Assembly: GCA_045106895.1 (NCBI GenBank)
Contig: JBGCFM010000156.1
Span: 1 to 26,640 of the forward strand
From: Polyangiales bacterium
Lineage (GTDB): Bacteria > Myxococcota_A > Polyangia > Polyangiales > Houyiibacteriaceae
Direction: 5' to 3'
Length of the DNA stretch: 26,640 bases
Positions within the stretch are counted from its first letter, which is position 1, and the number at the start of each line of letters is the position of its first letter. A model generated the notes under the pieces. The model was not told where the DNA came from and ran no database searches. It saw only the letters and a list, made by a program, of their open reading frames with translations. The translations under genes and the position numbers were made by a program. This document shows positions 16,937 to 23,842 of the stretch, in pieces.

Positions 16937-18097
16937 GTGAGGCTGTCCTTGGCCGCCTGCGCGTGGCTCTTCGCCGCCTGCGAAGGCGCGCCACTGGAGC
17001 CCTTCGATGAGAGCGCGCAGGAGTCGCCACTCGTCGCTGCGCCCGTCGACTCCGACTGTCCGCAGTTTCGCGCGCTAACCTTCAACGCGTTTTCCATTCT
17101 CTTTCATGAGAACCACGAGGAGCTCACGCGGCTTGGAGCGGAGGCTGTCGTCGCCGAGGATGCGGACCTTGTCGCGATCCAGGAGGTCTGGTTGGCCCGC
17201 GACGCCGCCGTATACGCCGATGCGCTGCGCGGAGCGGGGCTCGTTCACCAGATTCAACACACCACCGACGCGGTCCTCGCGCGGGGCAGCTCCGGACTTC
17301 TTCTCGCCAGTCGTTTCCCGATTGTGGCCAAACGCTTCATCCCCTTTCGAAGCGCCGCTGCTCCGTACTGGATGTGGCCTCCGGACTGGTACGCCAACAA
17401 AGGCGTGCTGGAAGTGGTCGTCGAGACCGGGGCGGGTTTGCTACGCGTGCTCAACGTCCATGTGCACGCGGACTACGAGCCCGGCGGCTACCTGGAGGAG
17501 CGACTGGGCCAGAGCATGGAGCTGGCGAACCTGATGCGCGAGCGACCGGAACTTCCACTCGTCGTTCTTGGCGACATGAACTCCCAGCCGCACGAGGTGT
17601 CCCACGCTGTGCTCACGGAGAGCACCGGGGCCGAGGTCGTCGCGCGCTCAGACGTCGACCTCATTCTCACGCGGCACGGACGGGGCGGAGCACTTCACGT
17701 CGACTCCGCACGCTATGCGCTCGTTCAGCGTGTGCGCCTTCAGAGCGGCGTTTGGTCGCGCCTCTCGGACCACGCGGGCGTGCTCGCGTCTCTCAAGCAG
17801 TGTCCAGCACGCAGCCCCCGGCCTGTGCTCGAGGACGTCGACGCAGCCTCACGCGTCATCCAGGAAGCCGCGAACAACGCACGGGTTCAAGGTTTGGTGG
17901 CGCGAGGTGGATGTGCCGCGCTTGCTGTCGTTTTGCTGTTCTGGGGCGGGCTTATGGTTCGCCGACGTCGATGGCCGAGCCGCTACCAGGTGACCCTGCC
18001 GCTCTTGCTGGTCTGGGTCATCGCCTGGAGCGTCTACCAAGGGTGGCTGGCGGCGCCGGCGCAACTCGCTGCGTATGAGGCCCTCGTTTCCATGTAA
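16937..18097 (+). CDS. Endonuclease/exonuclease/phosphatase (EEP) family, neutral sphingomyelinase-like, with two C-terminal TM helices
   Basis: LTFN, IQEVW, SGLLLASRFPI, DWYANKG, VHVHADY, LGDMN, LSDHAGV; possible lipobox FAAC. Start uncertain (GTG 16937 or ATG 16898). Confidence 0.85.
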   Translation: MRLSLAACAWLFAACEGAPLEPFDESAQESPLVAAPVDSDCPQFRALTFNAFSILFHENHEELTRLGAEAVVAEDADLVAIQEVWLARDAAVYADALRGAGLVHQIQHTTDAVLARGSSGLLLASRFPIVAKRFIPFRSAAAPYWMWPPDWYANKGVLEVVVETGAGLLRVLNVHVHADYEPGGYLEERLGQSMELANLMRERPELPLVVLGDMNSQPHEVSHAVLTESTGAEVVARSDVDLILTRHGRGGALHVDSARYALVQRVRLQSGVWSRLSDHAGVLASLKQCPARSPRPVLEDVDAASRVIQEAANNARVQGLVARGGCAALAVVLLFWGGLMVRRRRWPSRYQVTLPLLLVWVIAWSVYQGWLAAPAQLAAYEALVSM

Positions 18098-18154
18098 AGC
18101 GGCGGCAAGCGCCTGGGCCCGGGGCTGTCTCATCGATGATCCATGGCTTTTCCC

Positions 18155-18181
18155 TAAAGCAAGACGGCGGACGTCCGATGA
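18155..18181 (+). promoter_or_regulatory. sigma28 (FliA) promoter upstream of flgM
   Basis: TAAA-N15-TCCGATGA versus consensus TAAA-N15-GCCGATAA, followed by SD GGAGG and ATG 18204. Confidence 0.75.
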
Positions 18182-18203
18182 GATCCTTGGAGGCTCACAC
18201 CCC

Positions 18204-18455
18204 ATGCGAGTTCAAGGATCGTCCCCCATCAACCCCCTACGCACATCTTCCACGCAGAATGCCGCCCCGCCGCGCAGCGAGCGTCCCAAAGACGCCGCCC
18301 AGGTCTCAGCGGTCGCGACTCAGCTCGCGGATGCGAAGGGCCCGGAGGTCATCGACCTCGAACGCGTCGAACGCTTGAAAGCGGCCATCGCGAAGGGGGC
18401 CTTCAATATCGACGCCGACGTCATCGCAGAGCGCATGCTCGCGGAAGAGTCATGA
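18204..18455 (+). CDS. flgM: Anti-sigma28 factor FlgM
   Basis: 83 aa; D..QVS and IDLERVERLKAAIAKGAFNIDADVIAERML, the FlgM C-terminal signature; position upstream of flgK. Confidence 0.92.
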   Translation: MRVQGSSPINPLRTSSTQNAAPPRSERPKDAAQVSAVATQLADAKGPEVIDLERVERLKAAIAKGAFNIDADVIAERMLAEES

Positions 18456-18760
18456 GAGGCGCCGCGAGCGAAGAAGCGAAGGTCCTCTGGGAGCTGCTCG
18501 AGACGGAGCGCGAAGCCGCTCGCCGCGCAGACGCCATGGGGCTCTTGACCATTCAGTCGTTGAAACGTGACGCGCTGGCGGACTTGGTAAATGTACCGGA
18601 CCACGAGCGGATGGAGCTCGTTCGCTACGCCCGTGAAAACCTGCGCCGAATCCGCACGCTTCTGAACTGCTACGAGGGAAGCCTCGGCATCGAGAAGGCG
18701 CCGCAGACCTACGGGAACTCCGGGCGACTTCGCATCCTCGGGGGGAACGGAAACCCATGA
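18452..18760 (+). CDS. flgN: FlgN-like flagellar export chaperone
   Basis: Between flgM and flgK with ATGA overlaps at both ends; helical, LLETEREA...K...N...TYGNSG pattern typical of FlgN; short (102 aa). Confidence 0.7.
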   Translation: MRGAASEEAKVLWELLETEREAARRADAMGLLTIQSLKRDALADLVNVPDHERMELVRYARENLRRIRTLLNCYEGSLGIEKAPQTYGNSGRLRILGGNGNP

Positions 18761-20136
18761 GCATCTACGGCATCCTGAACACGGGCCGAACCGGGATGAC
18801 GGCGCACTCTTACGCCACCGGCGTGACCGCGCAGAATGCCGAGAACGCGACGACCGCAGGCTATTCGAGGCGACTCGCTCGCCTCGAGAACGTCGCGCCT
18901 CCTGAAGGCGGCGTTCGCGCCCGCGGGGCTCGGCGTGTCGTCGATCCCTTCATCAACAAACGCCTCCTCGGCGCGGGATCCGGCGCAGGCTACGGGGAAG
19001 CGAAAGCGTCTGCCCTGGGTGTACTCGACCACGTCTTCGCCGATGGCCCTGGAGACCTTGGTGAACGCATCGGTGCTTTTGAGGCCGGACTGGTCGAGCT
19101 CAGCACGCACCCAAGCGAAGGCGGCACCCGCGCCTCTGTGCTCGCCCGCGCGGAAGCGCTCGCGGATGCGTTCAACGGCGCTGCAGCGGAGCTCAGGGGC
19201 GCGAGGTCCGAGATCAACGACCGAATCGTCGGTGAAGTCGACGCCATCAACGCGTCCGCATCGCGCATCGCCGACCTCGGATCCCAAATCACGCGCGCCG
19301 AGATCGGCGGCCAAGAAGCATCCGACCTGCGAGACCTTCGAGACCAAGAGCTGCGTTCCCTCGCGGAGCGTGCTCCCATCACCGTCATCGAAGGAGAGCA
19401 TGGCTCGATGAACGTCCTCCTCGCGGGCAGCGTGAGTCTCGTCGACGAGGACCACCGCGCCCACGCGTTGCGTGCGCCCATCGACCCGGGCACAGGTGAT
19501 ATCGCCATCACGCGCCAAGAGGTCGGCGTCGACCGCGACGTCAGCGCGCTCTTCACGTCCGGAAGCGTCGGCGGAATGCTCGACGCACGAGACGGCGCGC
19601 TTAGCGACGCGCAGAGCGCCCTCGACGAACTCGCCTTCGACTTTGCCGGCGCCTACAACACGGCCCACCAAGCCGGAGTCGGCCTGGACGGGGTTGGCGG
19701 TCGCGACCTCTTCGACGCCGGGGTTGTCGATGGAGCGGCGGCGCGCTTCAGTGTCTCCGCCGACGTCGATGGACAGCCGGACAATATCGCCGCGGCCACC
19801 GACCCACTCGCTGTCGATGGTGACAACCGTGGCGCCTTGGCCCTCGTCGACCTCGCCAGCAACGCGTTTGCTCGTGGAGGCACAGAGACCGCCGTCGGCG
19901 GATACGCGCGAATCGTCGCCGATGCCGGGGCCGGCGTCCGCGCGGCGCTCGACGGGGCGGACACAGCTGCGGCGGCACTCTCACAAGTCAGCGCGTTACG
20001 CGAGGGCATCAGCGGCGTGTCCACAGATGACGAGATGGTGACGTTGATGGAGCTCCAGCGCGGCTACCAAGCGACCCTCAAAGTGATTCAAACGGCGGAT
20101 GAGATGCTCGAGAGCCTCATCAACCTGAAGAGGTAG
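18757..20136 (+). CDS. flgK: Flagellar hook-associated protein 1
   Basis: QNAENATTAGYSRR, DLRDLRDQ, GSVGGML, ISGVSTDDEMVTLMELQRGYQATLKVIQTADEML. Confidence 0.95.
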   Translation: MSIYGILNTGRTGMTAHSYATGVTAQNAENATTAGYSRRLARLENVAPPEGGVRARGARRVVDPFINKRLLGAGSGAGYGEAKASALGVLDHVFADGPGDLGERIGAFEAGLVELSTHPSEGGTRASVLARAEALADAFNGAAAELRGARSEINDRIVGEVDAINASASRIADLGSQITRAEIGGQEASDLRDLRDQELRSLAERAPITVIEGEHGSMNVLLAGSVSLVDEDHRAHALRAPIDPGTGDIAITRQEVGVDRDVSALFTSGSVGGMLDARDGALSDAQSALDELAFDFAGAYNTAHQAGVGLDGVGGRDLFDAGVVDGAAARFSVSADVDGQPDNIAAATDPLAVDGDNRGALALVDLASNAFARGGTETAVGGYARIVADAGAGVRAALDGADTAAAALSQVSALREGISGVSTDDEMVTLMELQRGYQATLKVIQTADEMLESLINLKR

Positions 20137-20138
20137 TC

Positions 20139-21014
20139 ATGCGCATTAGTGACCGATCTTTCTACAATCAAAACCGCAGCTCCCTCGCCAAGAGCCGAGG
20201 CGACCTCGCTGCGGCGCAGAGCAAAGCGACGTCCGGAAAGCGCGTGGAGAAACCCAGCGACGACCCACTCGCGGCAAGCCTGGCCACGAAACATCGGGCG
20301 CGCGAGCAGCATCTGCGCGCCAACCTCAAAGCCATCGACGCCGGGAAAGCGAAGGTCGACACCCAGGACACCGTCCTCGGCGACGCCGCGGACCGTTTGC
20401 GACGTGCCCAAGAGCTCGCGATTCAAGGGGCGAATGACCCCATGGACCCGGACGACCGACGGGCCATCGCCATTGAGATTTCTTCCATTCGCGAGACGAT
20501 CATTGGCCTGGCGAACACGCAAGATCCCGACGGCTACGTCTTCGCGGGCTACCGCTCCGATGCGCCCGCTTTTGATGCCGCGGGAGTTTATCAGGGAGAC
20601 GCCAACGTCCCGAGCTTCGACACCGGAAACGGCACCCGCGTCGAGGCGGGTGTCACCGGACTCACGGCCTTCGATGCCGGCGGCCCCAACGACGTATTTG
20701 CCGTTCTGAGCGATCTGGAGACCGCCTTAAACGCGGACGACGGACCGGGAATCGCTGCAACCATCGACCGCCTCAACCAGGCGCACGAAACGGTAGTCTA
20801 CGCGCGAGCAGATGTGGGCGGTGGACAGGCGGCCCTCGACGCTGCCAAAACGATCGCTGAGCGGATGCGCGATGACGCCATCGAAGCCCAGACTTCCCTC
20901 GTCGCCATCGACGAAACCGAAGCCTACGTAGACCTGCAGCAAACCCGCAACGCCTACGAGGCAGCCGTTCGAATCGCGTCGCAGATTCCGCCGCAAGGAC
21001 TCGTCTCACGATGA
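20139..21014 (+). CDS. flgL: Flagellar hook-associated protein 3
   Basis: MRIS..., SGKRVEKPSDDP, LANT..DGYVFAG, YQGD, AYEAA C-terminus; directly after flgK. Confidence 0.92.
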   Translation: MRISDRSFYNQNRSSLAKSRGDLAAAQSKATSGKRVEKPSDDPLAASLATKHRAREQHLRANLKAIDAGKAKVDTQDTVLGDAADRLRRAQELAIQGANDPMDPDDRRAIAIEISSIRETIIGLANTQDPDGYVFAGYRSDAPAFDAAGVYQGDANVPSFDTGNGTRVEAGVTGLTAFDAGGPNDVFAVLSDLETALNADDGPGIAATIDRLNQAHETVVYARADVGGGQAALDAAKTIAERMRDDAIEAQTSLVAIDETEAYVDLQQTRNAYEAAVRIASQIPPQGLVSR

Positions 21015-21083
21015 ATCGTCTGAACGTTGTTGGCGGTGATGGTTCAGGCCGCGAAGAGATGTCCGTATGACGGAGGAGACCCT

Positions 21084-21704
21084 ATGTTGACCCTAACGCG
21101 CAGACCCGGAGAGCGAATCGTCATTGGAGATGGCATCGAGATCGAGGTCCTCGCCGTAAGCGGAGGTCGGACACGTCTAGGTATCCGAGCTCCCCGCGAA
21201 ACCAGTGTCGTACGTGGCGAGCTCGTCGACCGCGTGCTCGGGCAGAACTTGGAAGCGTCCACCGAAGCGCAGGGACCGGAGACCTGGCGTCCGCCCAATG
21301 ACATGCCCATCGTGACCTTGGAGTCCGGCCTCTACGGAATGCCCGACCTCAAACGCTGGGTAGTCTGCGAGCTCGCCGAGGCCGTAGAAGGGGCCCGTAT
21401 TCCGCTTCGGCTCTTCATCGCCGCGGACCGCCCCTCGATACGACTGCTGGTGGCGGATGTCGTCGTGATTCGCCCCGACTTCCCCATCGCTCAGGCTTGT
21501 CTCATGGCCGGCGTGCCCGCAGAGAGCGCGGTGCTCGCAGGCGTGGTCACTGCGCCGACGGACGGCGAGTGCTCCATCAACCTGGCGGCGCCCATCGTCA
21601 TCGACCTCGCCCAGCGTCGCGGACGTCAGGTGATCCTCTCAGACGCACGTTTGCCAGTGGACGCGCCGCTCCACGCCGCGCCACCGATGGCGGCCAACTC
21701 ATGA
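21084..21704 (+). CDS. csrA: CsrA-FliW fusion protein
   Basis: SD GGAGGAG; residues 1-~58 are CsrA (MLTLTRRPGERIVIGDGIEIEVL...RLGIRAPRETSVVRGEL); the remainder is FliW-like (IVTLESGLYG, INLAAPIVID, GRQVIL), in the same frame with no stop. Confidence 0.88.
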   Translation: MLTLTRRPGERIVIGDGIEIEVLAVSGGRTRLGIRAPRETSVVRGELVDRVLGQNLEASTEAQGPETWRPPNDMPIVTLESGLYGMPDLKRWVVCELAEAVEGARIPLRLFIAADRPSIRLLVADVVVIRPDFPIAQACLMAGVPAESAVLAGVVTAPTDGECSINLAAPIVIDLAQRRGRQVILSDARLPVDAPLHAAPPMAANS

Positions 21705-22825
21705 TGGAGTCGAGCGCGGTGCTGGGGTTTGCGACGAGTTCCACGGAAGCCGTGGACATGGCGATCCGAATCCTAAAAGGCGCCGTCGCCGCCGGAGCGA
21801 GCGACGTTCACCTTCGGGCGGGAGCTCCCCCGCACGTGAGAATCGACGGCGAACTCTGTCCTCTTGAGCACCCCGATCTCGAAGCCGACCTCGTCGAATC
21901 GGTCTATCGGAACTTCTCGGCTTGGGCCAACGTTGGCCAAAGCCGGGTTGCCCAGCTTCAGCTCGAGTTCGGCTGCACCGTTCCGAACGTCGGGCGCTTC
22001 CGCGTGCACGCCTACAAGCAACAAGGAACCCGGGCGATGGTCATCCGCCATATCCCGCTGCCTGTTCCCGACTTCGCGACGCTACGCTTGCCTCCTGTCG
22101 TCAAGCCCATCACCCAGGAGCGGCGCGGTCTCGTCCTTGTCACCGGCGCGACGGGCAACGGGAAGTCGACGACCATCGCGGCGATGCTCGAGTACATGAA
22201 CCACCAGTCATGTCGTCACGTGGTCACCATCGAGGACCCCATCGAGTTCGTCTTTACCGAAGGCAAGAGCAGCTTCTCGCAGCGAGAGATCGGTGTCGAT
22301 GTGCCGACGGCCCGCGATGGGCTTCGCGGCGCTCTTCGCGAAGACCCCGACGTCATCTTCGTCGGAGAGATTCGCACGCACGAAGAGTTCGACGTCGCCC
22401 TCAACGCGGCAGAAGCGGGACACCTAGTGGTTTCCACTCTGCACTCCACGGACTGCATGGGCGCGATCTCGCGTATGCTGGGCTTCTACCCGCCGGAAAT
22501 GGAGAGTCATATCCGTGGCCGGCTCGCAGAGGCCCTCACTGCGGTCATTTGCCAGAAGCTTCTCCCGTCCCGCGGTGGCCGAGAACGGGTCCTCGTCACC
22601 GAGGTGATGCGGCGCGGCGCCACCATCGTCGACTGCATTCGCGACGCCACACGATTCCGCGGCTTGCCGGCGGCCCTCGACTCGGCGTTTCACGAACTAG
22701 GCACTCACAGCTTCGACTCGATGCTGCTCAAGATGGTCAAAGCCGGGGTGATCTCCATCGAGACTGCACGCGCGGCCGCTCGCTCCGAGAAGGACCTCAT
22801 ACGGCAGGTGAAGCTCGGCCGCTGA
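21701..22825 (+). CDS. pilT: PilT/PilU family type IV pilus retraction-type ATPase
   Basis: ASDVHL, GRFRV, Walker A GATGNGKSTT, TIEDPIE, QREIG, LREDPDVIFVGEIR, AEAGHLVVSTLH; ATG 21701 overlaps the csrA-fliW stop (alt. start 21758). Confidence 0.9.
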   Translation: MMESSAVLGFATSSTEAVDMAIRILKGAVAAGASDVHLRAGAPPHVRIDGELCPLEHPDLEADLVESVYRNFSAWANVGQSRVAQLQLEFGCTVPNVGRFRVHAYKQQGTRAMVIRHIPLPVPDFATLRLPPVVKPITQERRGLVLVTGATGNGKSTTIAAMLEYMNHQSCRHVVTIEDPIEFVFTEGKSSFSQREIGVDVPTARDGLRGALREDPDVIFVGEIRTHEEFDVALNAAEAGHLVVSTLHSTDCMGAISRMLGFYPPEMESHIRGRLAEALTAVICQKLLPSRGGRERVLVTEVMRRGATIVDCIRDATRFRGLPAALDSAFHELGTHSFDSMLLKMVKAGVISIETARAAARSEKDLIRQVKLGR

Positions 22826-22869
22826 CTAGGCTGGTTCTCAAGGGAGCACTCACGGGAGTCGAATGCGTG

Positions 22870-22885
22870 TATAGTTTGCGCGTAT
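22870..22885 (+). promoter_or_regulatory. -10 element overlapped by a LysR-type box
   Basis: TATAGT (22870-22875) overlapping ATA-N9-TAT (22871-22885, contains T-N11-A) just upstream of a LysR gene. Confidence 0.5.
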
Positions 22886-22912
22886 GGAAACCCAGCGACC
22901 GAAAGTGTCGAC

Positions 22913-23842
22913 GTGAGCGACGCCCCTACCCTCGAGTCACCCCTTCTCTACTTCCTGGCGGTGGTGGAGAACGGCAGTTTTAGCTCAGCTGCACGCGCCA
23001 TTGGCATCAGTCAGCCTTCGCTTTCCGTCGCCGTTCGCCGCCTCGAAGAGCGCTTAGGGACACAGCTCTTGCACCGGGAGTCGCGTGGGGCGAGTCCAAC
23101 CCGCGCCGGCCAGGTGCTCGCGCTGCGCGTCCAAGAGAGCATCGCTCTACTCGGACGCGCCAAAGACGAGATCGACGCCCTCGATGGCGAGCCTCGGGGG
23201 CACTACAACATCGGCGTTCATGAGAGCCTCGGCGCGTACTTCTTGCCGGGCTTCATGGGAGAGTTCGTCATGCGCCATCCGCGGGTGGAGCTGGGACTCT
23301 TCAACGCGCCCTCGCGCGACGTCGAAACGGCGATCCTCGAACGGCGCGTGGACCTTGGGCTCGTCGTCAACCCGGTACGCCACCCGGACTCCGTGGTGAG
23401 CGGCCTCTTCGACGATGTCGTCGTTCTCGTCGTCGCCTCGAAGCTACGCAAGCAGTGGAAGACGACGAAGGAGCTCCTCGCTGAGACACCCCTGCTTCAT
23501 GTGCCTTCCATCGTGCAGACCCAGGCGGTGCTTCAGGGGCTCGGACGCGACGGCTATGTCGTCCCAAGACGTGTGGCGTGCAGCAGCATGGCCCTCGTCA
23601 AAAACCTCGTCCTCGGCGCAACCGGCGTGGGCATTCTCCCCTGGCGCGTCGCGACGCACGGAGTCCCCGCCAAACGCATCGAGCTCGTCGACCCCAAGCT
23701 GCCCTCCTACCGCGACCACATTGCGCTGGTGCGCCGCGCGGACGCGCCGATGACGCGCACGCTGCGGCTGCTCCTCGACGGGCTCAAGGCCCATGGGAAG
23801 ACCGTGGCTGCGCTGCCGAAGCTGTCTAAATCGATGTCCTAG
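22913..23842 (+). CDS. LysR family transcriptional regulator
   Basis: YFLAVVENGSFSSAARAIGISQPSLSVAVRRLEERLG HTH; VDLGLV; 309 aa. Confidence 0.95.
   Translation: MSDAPTLESPLLYFLAVVENGSFSSAARAIGISQPSLSVAVRRLEERLGTQLLHRESRGASPTRAGQVLALRVQESIALLGRAKDEIDALDGEPRGHYNIGVHESLGAYFLPGFMGEFVMRHPRVELGLFNAPSRDVETAILERRVDLGLVVNPVRHPDSVVSGLFDDVVVLVVASKLRKQWKTTKELLAETPLLHVPSIVQTQAVLQGLGRDGYVVPRRVACSSMALVKNLVLGATGVGILPWRVATHGVPAKRIELVDPKLPSYRDHIALVRRADAPMTRTLRLLLDGLKAHGKTVAALPKLSKSMS

Follow-up and report, generated by a model that had tools for sequence, protein, structure and literature searches.

Can the RNA-binding regulator CsrA and its antagonist FliW, which are two proteins in Bacillus subtilis, be made as a single chain, and could such a chain still work as a flagellin switch? 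The question is raised by a csrA::fliW open reading frame (ORF) in a 26,640-nt stretch of DNA from an uncultured, flagellated Polyangiales bacterium (GenBank assembly GCA_045106895.1, contig JBGCFM010000156.1, positions 1 to 26,640; hereafter, the window). Among the systems in which a protein allosterically controls a global RNA-binding regulator, FliW-CsrA is a leading model, and how FliW turns CsrA off and why the ratio must be exact are still debated. A protein that links the two partners covalently, has neither the tail of CsrA nor the N-terminus of FliW and differs at several contact residues is a natural test of the FliW-CsrA models and a minimal construct for structural and biophysical study of intramolecular partner switching. 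It is also a Rosetta-stone case, which confirms independently that CsrA and FliW interact, in a phylum whose members are known more as gliders than as swimmers.

CsrA and FliW on one chain

The CsrA repressor and the FliW antagonist are made as one conserved 206-residue protein, and the fusion is confirmed. A first-pass annotation of the window, made from the sequence alone, had proposed an in-frame fusion with R44 and N55 retained in the CsrA part, a short linker and several FliW motifs. The coordinates proved exact and all of these elements are present in the translation, with the codons of R44 at 21213-21215 and of N55 at 21246-21248 and the linker STEAQGPETWRPPNDMP between the two halves. 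The Pfam CsrA profile (PF02599) matched residues 1-51 (profile positions 1-51 of 53, 72.4 bits, E 2.9e-20; curated cut-off 27 bits) and the Pfam FliW profile (PF02623) residues 78-196 (profile positions 2-122 of 122, 54.4 bits, E 1.4e-14; curated cut-off 25 bits). The fused protein matched CsrA chains of the PDB at E 1e-10, and a profile of its family recovered both chains of 5DMB, the FliW chain (5dmb_A) at E 3.6e-19 and the CsrA chain at E 5.2e-18. The LQS motif of FliW, which the first-pass annotation had described as lacking, is indeed not there: the fused protein reads LFIAA, and the family consensus is L-V-S. In the genome as a whole (7.7 Mb in 288 contigs, 96% complete), this ORF is both the sole CsrA match and the sole FliW match.

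Structure prediction agrees with these assignments. In the AlphaFold2 (AF2) monomer model of the fused protein (mean predicted local distance difference test, pLDDT, 86.9; predicted template modelling score, pTM, 0.81), the N-terminal part superposes on CsrA chains, with DSSP placing strands at residues 11-14, 18-26 and 29-35 and a helix at 45-61. The C-terminal half, suspected from the start to be FliW-like, is FliW by profile and by fold: VIA gave Z 14.7 and a root-mean-square deviation of 2.3-2.5 A over 126-128 residues against 5dmd_B and 5dmb_A (2.5 A over 128 residues for 5dmb_A), and Foldseek gave E 1e-7 to 1e-6 against 5dmd, 5jak, 2aj7 and 5dmb (best 1.3e-7). A relative with 38% identity, P0035, was modelled with pLDDT 91.5 and pTM 0.83. 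The CsrA helix is confidently modelled in both, and such pTM values for two-domain chains suggest, at the level of the models, that this helix docks on the FliW domain in a fixed way. Residues 1-10 of CsrA are unpaired in both monomer models, as expected if strand 1 needs the partner chain of a CsrA homodimer. Linker residues 63-75 run along the path taken by FliW residues 6-18 in 5DMB, and the linker block (residues 61-70) has a mean pLDDT of 68 in the fused protein and 87 in P0035.

The same architecture recurs in related genomes. Among 41 genomes (its own and 40 relatives), 12 carry a full-length match free of stops, at 97% down to 40% identity, so that close relatives have the fusion and not two genes, an outcome that the first-pass annotation had named among those that would refute a fusion. 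Clustered public proteins gave 39 matches (195-246 aa, 98-37% identity), and the suggested check for joint Pfam CsrA and FliW architecture returned both domains in all 39. When one genome of each prokaryotic species was scanned, 30 loci were obtained, 18 of which are single uninterrupted ORFs of 190-223 aa with the same architecture; these 18 species are all metagenome-assembled genomes titled Polyangiales, Polyangiaceae, Polyangia, Sandaracinaceae, Myxococcota, Myxococcales or Deltaproteobacteria. Of 401 genomes sampled across the phylum, nine have a single fused match and no other, and all nine are of the same order as the window. In the databases, genes of the fused form are labelled merely 'carbon storage regulator' or 'FliW', labels that hide the fused architecture.

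A sequencing or assembly frameshift that joined two genes, or a pseudogene, could produce a similar picture; the genome is a 288-contig assembly, and frameshifted entries of the fusion family do exist in the database (P0087, for example). However, the junction (21240-21310), where a check for an indel or lost stop had been advised, is bridged without any indel by contigs from three independent studies (runs X1, X4 and X5), and the four substitutions that run X5 shows inside the fused ORF all fall on third codon positions. Together with the same junction architecture in 18 species and the presence of both domains in all 39 clusters down to 37% identity, these indel-free contigs and third-position substitutions make an assembly error or a pseudogene very unlikely; both AF2 models are also confident. 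We regard an artefact of this kind as hardly credible, and the fusion is evidently conserved under purifying selection.

A single gene might nevertheless give two proteins, if FliW were released by an internal start near M74 or by cleavage of the linker and an ordinary two-protein switch resulted. An in-frame ATG (21303, M74) immediately precedes the FliW domain, the variable linker is modelled in part with low confidence (the pLDDT of 68 given above), and P0075 (128 aa) and P0083 (164 aa), which group with the fusions of this junction type, have no CsrA part. However, only two of 31 aligned members have Met in the M74 column, and no Shine-Dalgarno (SD) sequence stands at a usable distance, the nearest GGAG being about 21 nt upstream of ATG 21303. 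Moreover, the first strand and the start that FliW keeps in split relatives are gone from the FliW part, the P0035 linker is modelled at high confidence, and truncation or a frameshift in the gene call may explain P0075 and P0083, the same database having clearly frameshifted entries such as P0087. Release of a separate FliW is therefore quite improbable, and the fusion withstands the independent start at ATG 21303 that the first-pass annotation had considered.

Contact surfaces and a proposed tethered switch

Residue conservation was counted over 31 family members. The RNA-binding residues of CsrA, which we take from mutagenesis in Escherichia coli to be L2, L4, R6, R7 and R44 with their neighbours on strands beta1 and beta5, are retained: L2, L4, R6, R44 and also E46 are found in 31 of 31 and R7 in 29, with K in the other two. 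On the CsrA helix, N55, already noted as kept in the first-pass annotation, is present in 28 members and A58 in 30. On the FliW side, N166 (N108 in B. subtilis) is retained in 29, A169 (A111) in 30 and Q182 (Q124) in all 31; L121 stands at the equivalent of F58 in 30, and G82, G85, P170 and Q182 are invariant across the family. In B. subtilis, the CsrA variant N55D is reported to escape FliW, FliW residues P26, F58, N108, A111, A122, K123 and Q124 to be needed to antagonise CsrA, and a salt bridge between CsrA D41 and FliW K123 to lie near the core (Oshiro and Kearns 2020, preprint). Hydrogen-deuterium exchange (HDX) data locate the regions of FliW protected by flagellin at residues 3-11 (W1) and at residues 22-28 and 95-115 (PMC6070490). 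The second region overlies CsrA-contact residues, which fits mutually exclusive binding of flagellin and CsrA, and its residues N166, A169 and P170 are conserved in the fusion family.

The Hag-FliW-CsrA switch has also been reported for Campylobacter jejuni, Clostridioides difficile, Helicobacter pylori and Geobacter sulfurreducens. We consider a tethered flagellin-FliW-CsrA partner switch on one chain the best reading of the fused gene and a moderately probable one. The CsrA halves would dimerise as in all CsrA proteins, and each tethered FliW would dock in cis on the CsrA helix near N55 through its N166/A169/Q182 surface, leaving the RNA-binding faces off. Unexported flagellin, when it accumulates, would bind the same FliW surface and displace the CsrA helix, and the freed CsrA dimer would then clamp two GGA sites in the flagellin leader, one in a hairpin loop and one at the SD sequence, so as to block flagellin translation; export of flagellin would reset the switch. 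The tether would give each CsrA dimer two FliW and would make FliW locally very concentrated, and the changed contacts (F, Y or L in place of P26, and no counterpart of the D41-K123 pair) may, speculatively, retune the intramolecular affinity so that flagellin still wins. The compact CsrA-FliW fusion is a one-chain version of the known system and not categorically new, and the mechanism proposed for it is plausible.

The fusion resembles the B. subtilis system and its Geobacillus thermodenitrificans counterpart (5DMB) in several respects: the same two families and the same FliW fold are involved, N55 and the equivalents of FliW N108, A111 and Q124 are conserved, and the gene sits after flgK-flgL. 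In contrast, the fusion is one polypeptide where B. subtilis has two proteins, it has neither the CsrA C-terminal tail nor approximately the first 18 FliW residues, and P26 and the D41-K123 pair are not conserved. FliW and CsrA are not encoded here as separate proteins that could exchange partners: the ORF is single and has no conserved internal start, and no second csrA or fliW was found in the genome. The gene order also differs, being fliW then csrA, with overlap, in B. subtilis (PMC6529632) and CsrA then FliW in the fusion. In B. subtilis about one FliW is present per CsrA dimer, a ratio held by translational coupling (Oshiro 2019, PMC6529632), and the tether therefore amounts to a different stoichiometry, with two FliW per dimer. 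The proposal in the first-pass annotation that tethering fixes a 1:1 stoichiometry calls for correction in this respect, since the two FliW forced on each CsrA dimer are not the native ratio.

Flagellin leaders and the weighing of alternatives

The genome carries two flagellin genes on another contig, where they adjoin fliD and fliS, and it also encodes FlhA and FliG. Both flagellin leaders have CUCA(A/C)GGA(A/G)GAG over the SD sequence and, upstream of it, a GGA-loop hairpin (CGCC-AAGGAC-GGCG in one, CGCU-AGGAC-GGCG in the other). Among 25 flagellin leaders from 11 fusion-bearing genomes, CA[AC]GGA occurs within 22 nt of the start in all 25 and the exact 12-mer CTCA[AC]GGA[AG]GAG in 20, and an upstream GGA-loop hairpin is found in 21, against a mean of 11.4 (sd 2.4, maximum 18) in 300 dinucleotide shuffles. 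The 12-mer has 24 matches in the whole genome, where 4.4 are expected. The two-site arrangement, with one GGA in a hairpin and one over the SD sequence, is that described for the B. subtilis hag leader (PMC13443453, PMC6070490). Flagellin genes are present in 12 of 12 fusion-bearing relatives, and the fusion is absent from 26 of 26 genomes without flagellin.

Definition of a regulon by the 10-mer CA[AC]GGA[AG]GAG or by the 12-mer was rejected, as most genome matches have no start codon after them. Conserved autoregulation of the fused gene was likewise rejected, since the gene abuts flgL in many loci and GGA-loop hairpins precede it in one subclade only; in the window its own SD region reads ACGGAGGAG, with no GGA-loop hairpins upstream. 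In that subclade (L050:3385-3458, L051:3927-4000 and L059:110-183), two GGA-loop hairpins (CCCGTCAGGATGAACGG and GCGCAGGATGCGC) lie upstream of the fused gene, which suggests that it may be autoregulated there.

Three genomes of the same order (G026, G036 and G039) carry flagellin genes, yet the family profile matched neither CsrA nor FliW in them. Upstream of the G036 flagellin gene (L106, an open frame of 552 aa) the sequence is AT-rich, which sets it apart from its relatives. In the genome studied here, two full-length FHIPEP (FlhA-type) export-gate genes occur, on contigs C128 and C39, and FliG is found once, on C128; the second gate may be part of a type III system other than the flagellar one. 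The flagellin-fliD-fliS cluster has as its neighbour a gene for a ParA/MinD-type ATPase that ends in a PilZ domain (L018:8292-9557, contig C168).

Several observations weigh against a tethered switch. At the level of the whole domains, the NCBIfam equivalog cut-offs were missed, for CsrA by NF002469 (61 against 73) and TIGR00202 (56 against 70.1), models that include C-terminal residues replaced in the fused protein, and for FliW by the best model, NF009799 (54.2 against 165, aligned from model position 17). The pTM is an indirect sign of docking only. Among contact residues, position 84, the equivalent of the P26 that is essential in B. subtilis, is F, Y or L in 30 of the 31 members; position 41 (CsrA D41) is P in 22 and otherwise S, T, A or R, never D or E; and position 181 (FliW K123) is R or K in only 15. 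The D41-K123 salt bridge evidently has no counterpart in the fusion family. The segment equivalent to FliW residues 3-11 (W1) is missing in the compact fusion, and because of its absence flagellin binding may be weakened or altered, or may involve the linker; the caution in the first-pass annotation that ligand or mechanism may have changed thereby gains a concrete basis. A permanently tethered antagonist could, moreover, hold CsrA off constitutively. On the RNA side, the motif at the SD site contains an ordinary GGAG, the 10-mer has 176 matches genome-wide where 75 are expected, and folding of the two leaders from this genome predicts the hairpins with energies that surpass those of shuffled sequences narrowly (z -2.06) or not at all (z +0.72). 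Finally, the leaders of the three flagellated genomes without the fusion have CAAGGA at the SD site in one of four usable cases and the 12-mer in none of four, a sample too small to be telling.

Some of these points would also be accounted for by a FliW domain that no longer reads flagellin, or not flagellin alone, and responds to another partner or state, possibly the coupled PilT ATPase. The loss of the W1 equivalent and the changes at P26 and at the salt-bridge positions would agree with this, as would the PilT/PilU gene that overlaps the stop of the fused gene here and in eight related loci. However, the flgK-flgL position of the fused gene is kept in 15 of the 18 species loci (L049-L066), pilT is not found downstream in eight of the 18, co-occurrence with flagellin genes is strict, the dual GGA sites are kept in flagellin leaders, and the second flagellin-protected region (N166, A169 and P170) is conserved. 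A rewired input of this sort appears rather unlikely.

Another possibility is that inhibition is permanent, so that the protein serves mainly as a FliW-type flagellin-binding factor, or that the CsrA part does no more than anchor it on flagellin mRNA, without regulated repression. A covalently linked antagonist is present at very high local concentration, which favours the bound state, and FliW is described as the partner of flagellin in a FliS-flagellin-FliW complex (PMC6070490). However, the RNA-binding residues are invariant among members that are only 37-40% identical, and 21-25 of 25 flagellin genes retain the two-site leader architecture; had RNA repression fallen out of use, one would expect both to have decayed. 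The fusion-bearing genomes, moreover, have no other CsrA. We find a permanently inactive CsrA hard to credit.

The tethered partner switch might also have been re-engineered further, into a single-chain sensor in which the linker replaces the flagellin-contact loop and flagellin acts directly on the tether so as to free the CsrA face, the two sensors of a dimer are cooperative, and coupling to PilT coordinates filament assembly with type IV pili. This elaboration is doubtful; if it were true, one operon would coordinate flagellar and type IV pilus motility in bacteria that have both.

Origin of the fusion and its operon

Split relatives of the same phylum have the order flgK-flgL-csrA-fliW, with csrA and fliW adjoining or overlapping, and in most of the other classes of the phylum sample csrA is directly followed by fliW. 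In G344, of the same order as the window, csrA overlaps the start of fliW by 14 nt in another frame, and a small frame change at such an overlap would join the two genes. In family f17 of this order, csrA and fliW are matched separately, in some cases on different contigs. The fusion probably arose from adjacent, overlapping csrA and fliW genes that ended a flgM-flgK-flgL late flagellar operon. The operon position and the order csrA before fliW are shared with these split genes, which often overlap; in the split forms, however, CsrA still has its tail, and FliW still has a start and a first strand of its own. A split arrangement is also described for Geobacter, in a flgJKLMN-csrA-fliW operon (PMC13407953).

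The CsrA of split relatives is 75-112 aa long with a C-terminal tail, and their FliW begins with M-x-F-x-S-P-R-F-G-x-x-E-V before the GLxGF motif, a segment absent in the fused protein. The FliW of 5DMB (5dmb_A) aligns to the fused protein only from residue 19 (phmmer) or 13 (family profile), so that the N-terminal FliW hairpin, reported as lacking in the first-pass annotation, is missing at the sequence level. By these comparisons, the fusion removed the CsrA C-terminal tail and about the first 18 FliW residues, leaving a linker of ~14 residues instead. Across the 31 members, 18-50 residues (median 22) separate the equivalents of A58 and G82, and the linker is variable in sequence and length.

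The CsrA-FliW fusion is, from the protein databases, not unique to this genome or lineage. A profile search of 1.84 billion representative proteins returned ~50 single-stretch full-length fusions among the best 150 matches. Fusions with other junctions include P0206 (222 aa, on 152 contigs), P0101 (253 aa), P0078 (238 aa), P0090 and P0084, and the P0078 cluster holds one member named Desulfobaccales. Like the compact form, these metagenomic fusions are single ORFs in which a Pfam CsrA domain comes first and a Pfam FliW domain second; they differ in keeping the first FliW strand and mostly the CsrA tail too, and so are longer, with different junctions. In a quick FliW-domain tree without bootstrap, the compact form is one clade (33 rows; Shimodaira-Hasegawa-like approximate likelihood ratio test, SH-aLRT, 99). 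Because the other-junction fusions scatter among split FliWs in the same tree, CsrA-FliW fusion probably arose several times, in separate events. Other Pfam architectures were also seen in metagenomic proteins, namely CsrA-CsrA, four CsrA repeats and FliW-FliW (P0065, P0068, P0071-P0073, P0097, P0060, P0061, P0067, P0076 and P0085). P0065 (261 aa, a singleton) is a CsrA-CsrA-FliW chain, which would match the B. subtilis ratio of one FliW per CsrA dimer.

The first-pass annotation knew of no characterised fusion of this kind, and the literature searched agrees: no description of a natural CsrA-FliW fusion was found in full-text articles, a provisional result as subscription journals were not covered, and within the same coverage no paper linked FliW and CsrA to Myxococcota. 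The accessible parts of a 2026 survey of CsrA diversity contain no natural fusion. Flagellar genes in uncultured Myxococcota have been noted before (bioRxiv 10.1101/2021.07.06.451402).

In the window, the fused gene is the final flagellar gene of a flgM-flgK-flgL row (Table 1). A scan of positions 17800-23200 gave zero promoter-like sites and fewer terminator-like sites than the shuffle mean.

Table 1. Features of the fused csrA::fliW gene and of its neighbours in the window.
Feature	Position	Strand	Basis or remark
flgM (anti-sigma-28), first recognisable gene of the late flagellar row	18075..18455	+	Pfam FlgM 42.7 bits; TIGR03824 52 vs cut-off 40.75
102-aa ORF between flgM and flgK	18452..18760	+	No Pfam match above cut-off and no NCBIfam match
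flgK (hook-associated protein 1)	18757..20136	+	Pfam FlgK_D1 176 bits, Flg_bbr_C 58 bits
flgL (hook-associated protein 3)	20139..21014	+	TIGR02550 173 bits vs cut-off 127; Pfam Flagellin_N 73.9 bits
Shine-Dalgarno sequence GGAGGAG of the fused gene	21072..21078	+	Sequence reading; 5 nt before ATG 21084
Fused csrA::fliW ORF	21084..21704	+	206 aa + stop; ATG 21084-21086, TGA 21702-21704
CsrA domain, residues 1-61 (beta core and helix 45-61 with N55, A58)	21084..21266	+	Pfam 1-51, DSSP
Linker, residues 62-75	21267..21308	+	Replaces CsrA C-terminal tail and FliW first strand
FliW domain, residues 76-198	21309..21677	+	Pfam FliW residues 78-196, Foldseek, VIA
Low-confidence C-terminal tail, residues 199-206	21678..21701	+	pLDDT <50 at 201-206; not conserved in family alignment
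PilT/PilU-family ATPase	21701..22825	+	TIGR01420 350 bits vs cut-off 319; start overlaps stop of fused gene (ATGA)

Ten of the 18 species loci have a pilT homologue downstream of the fused gene. In the window, the pilus retraction ATPase (21701-22825) is presumably coupled in translation to the flagellin regulator. The 4-nt stop/start overlap of the two genes (ATGA or GTGA) also occurs in the eight related loci L049-L054, L057 and L059. Homologues of the 102-aa ORF are found, among the 18 species loci, only in L049 and L052, the closest relatives; from its position in the typical operon order, this ORF may encode a FlgN-like chaperone.

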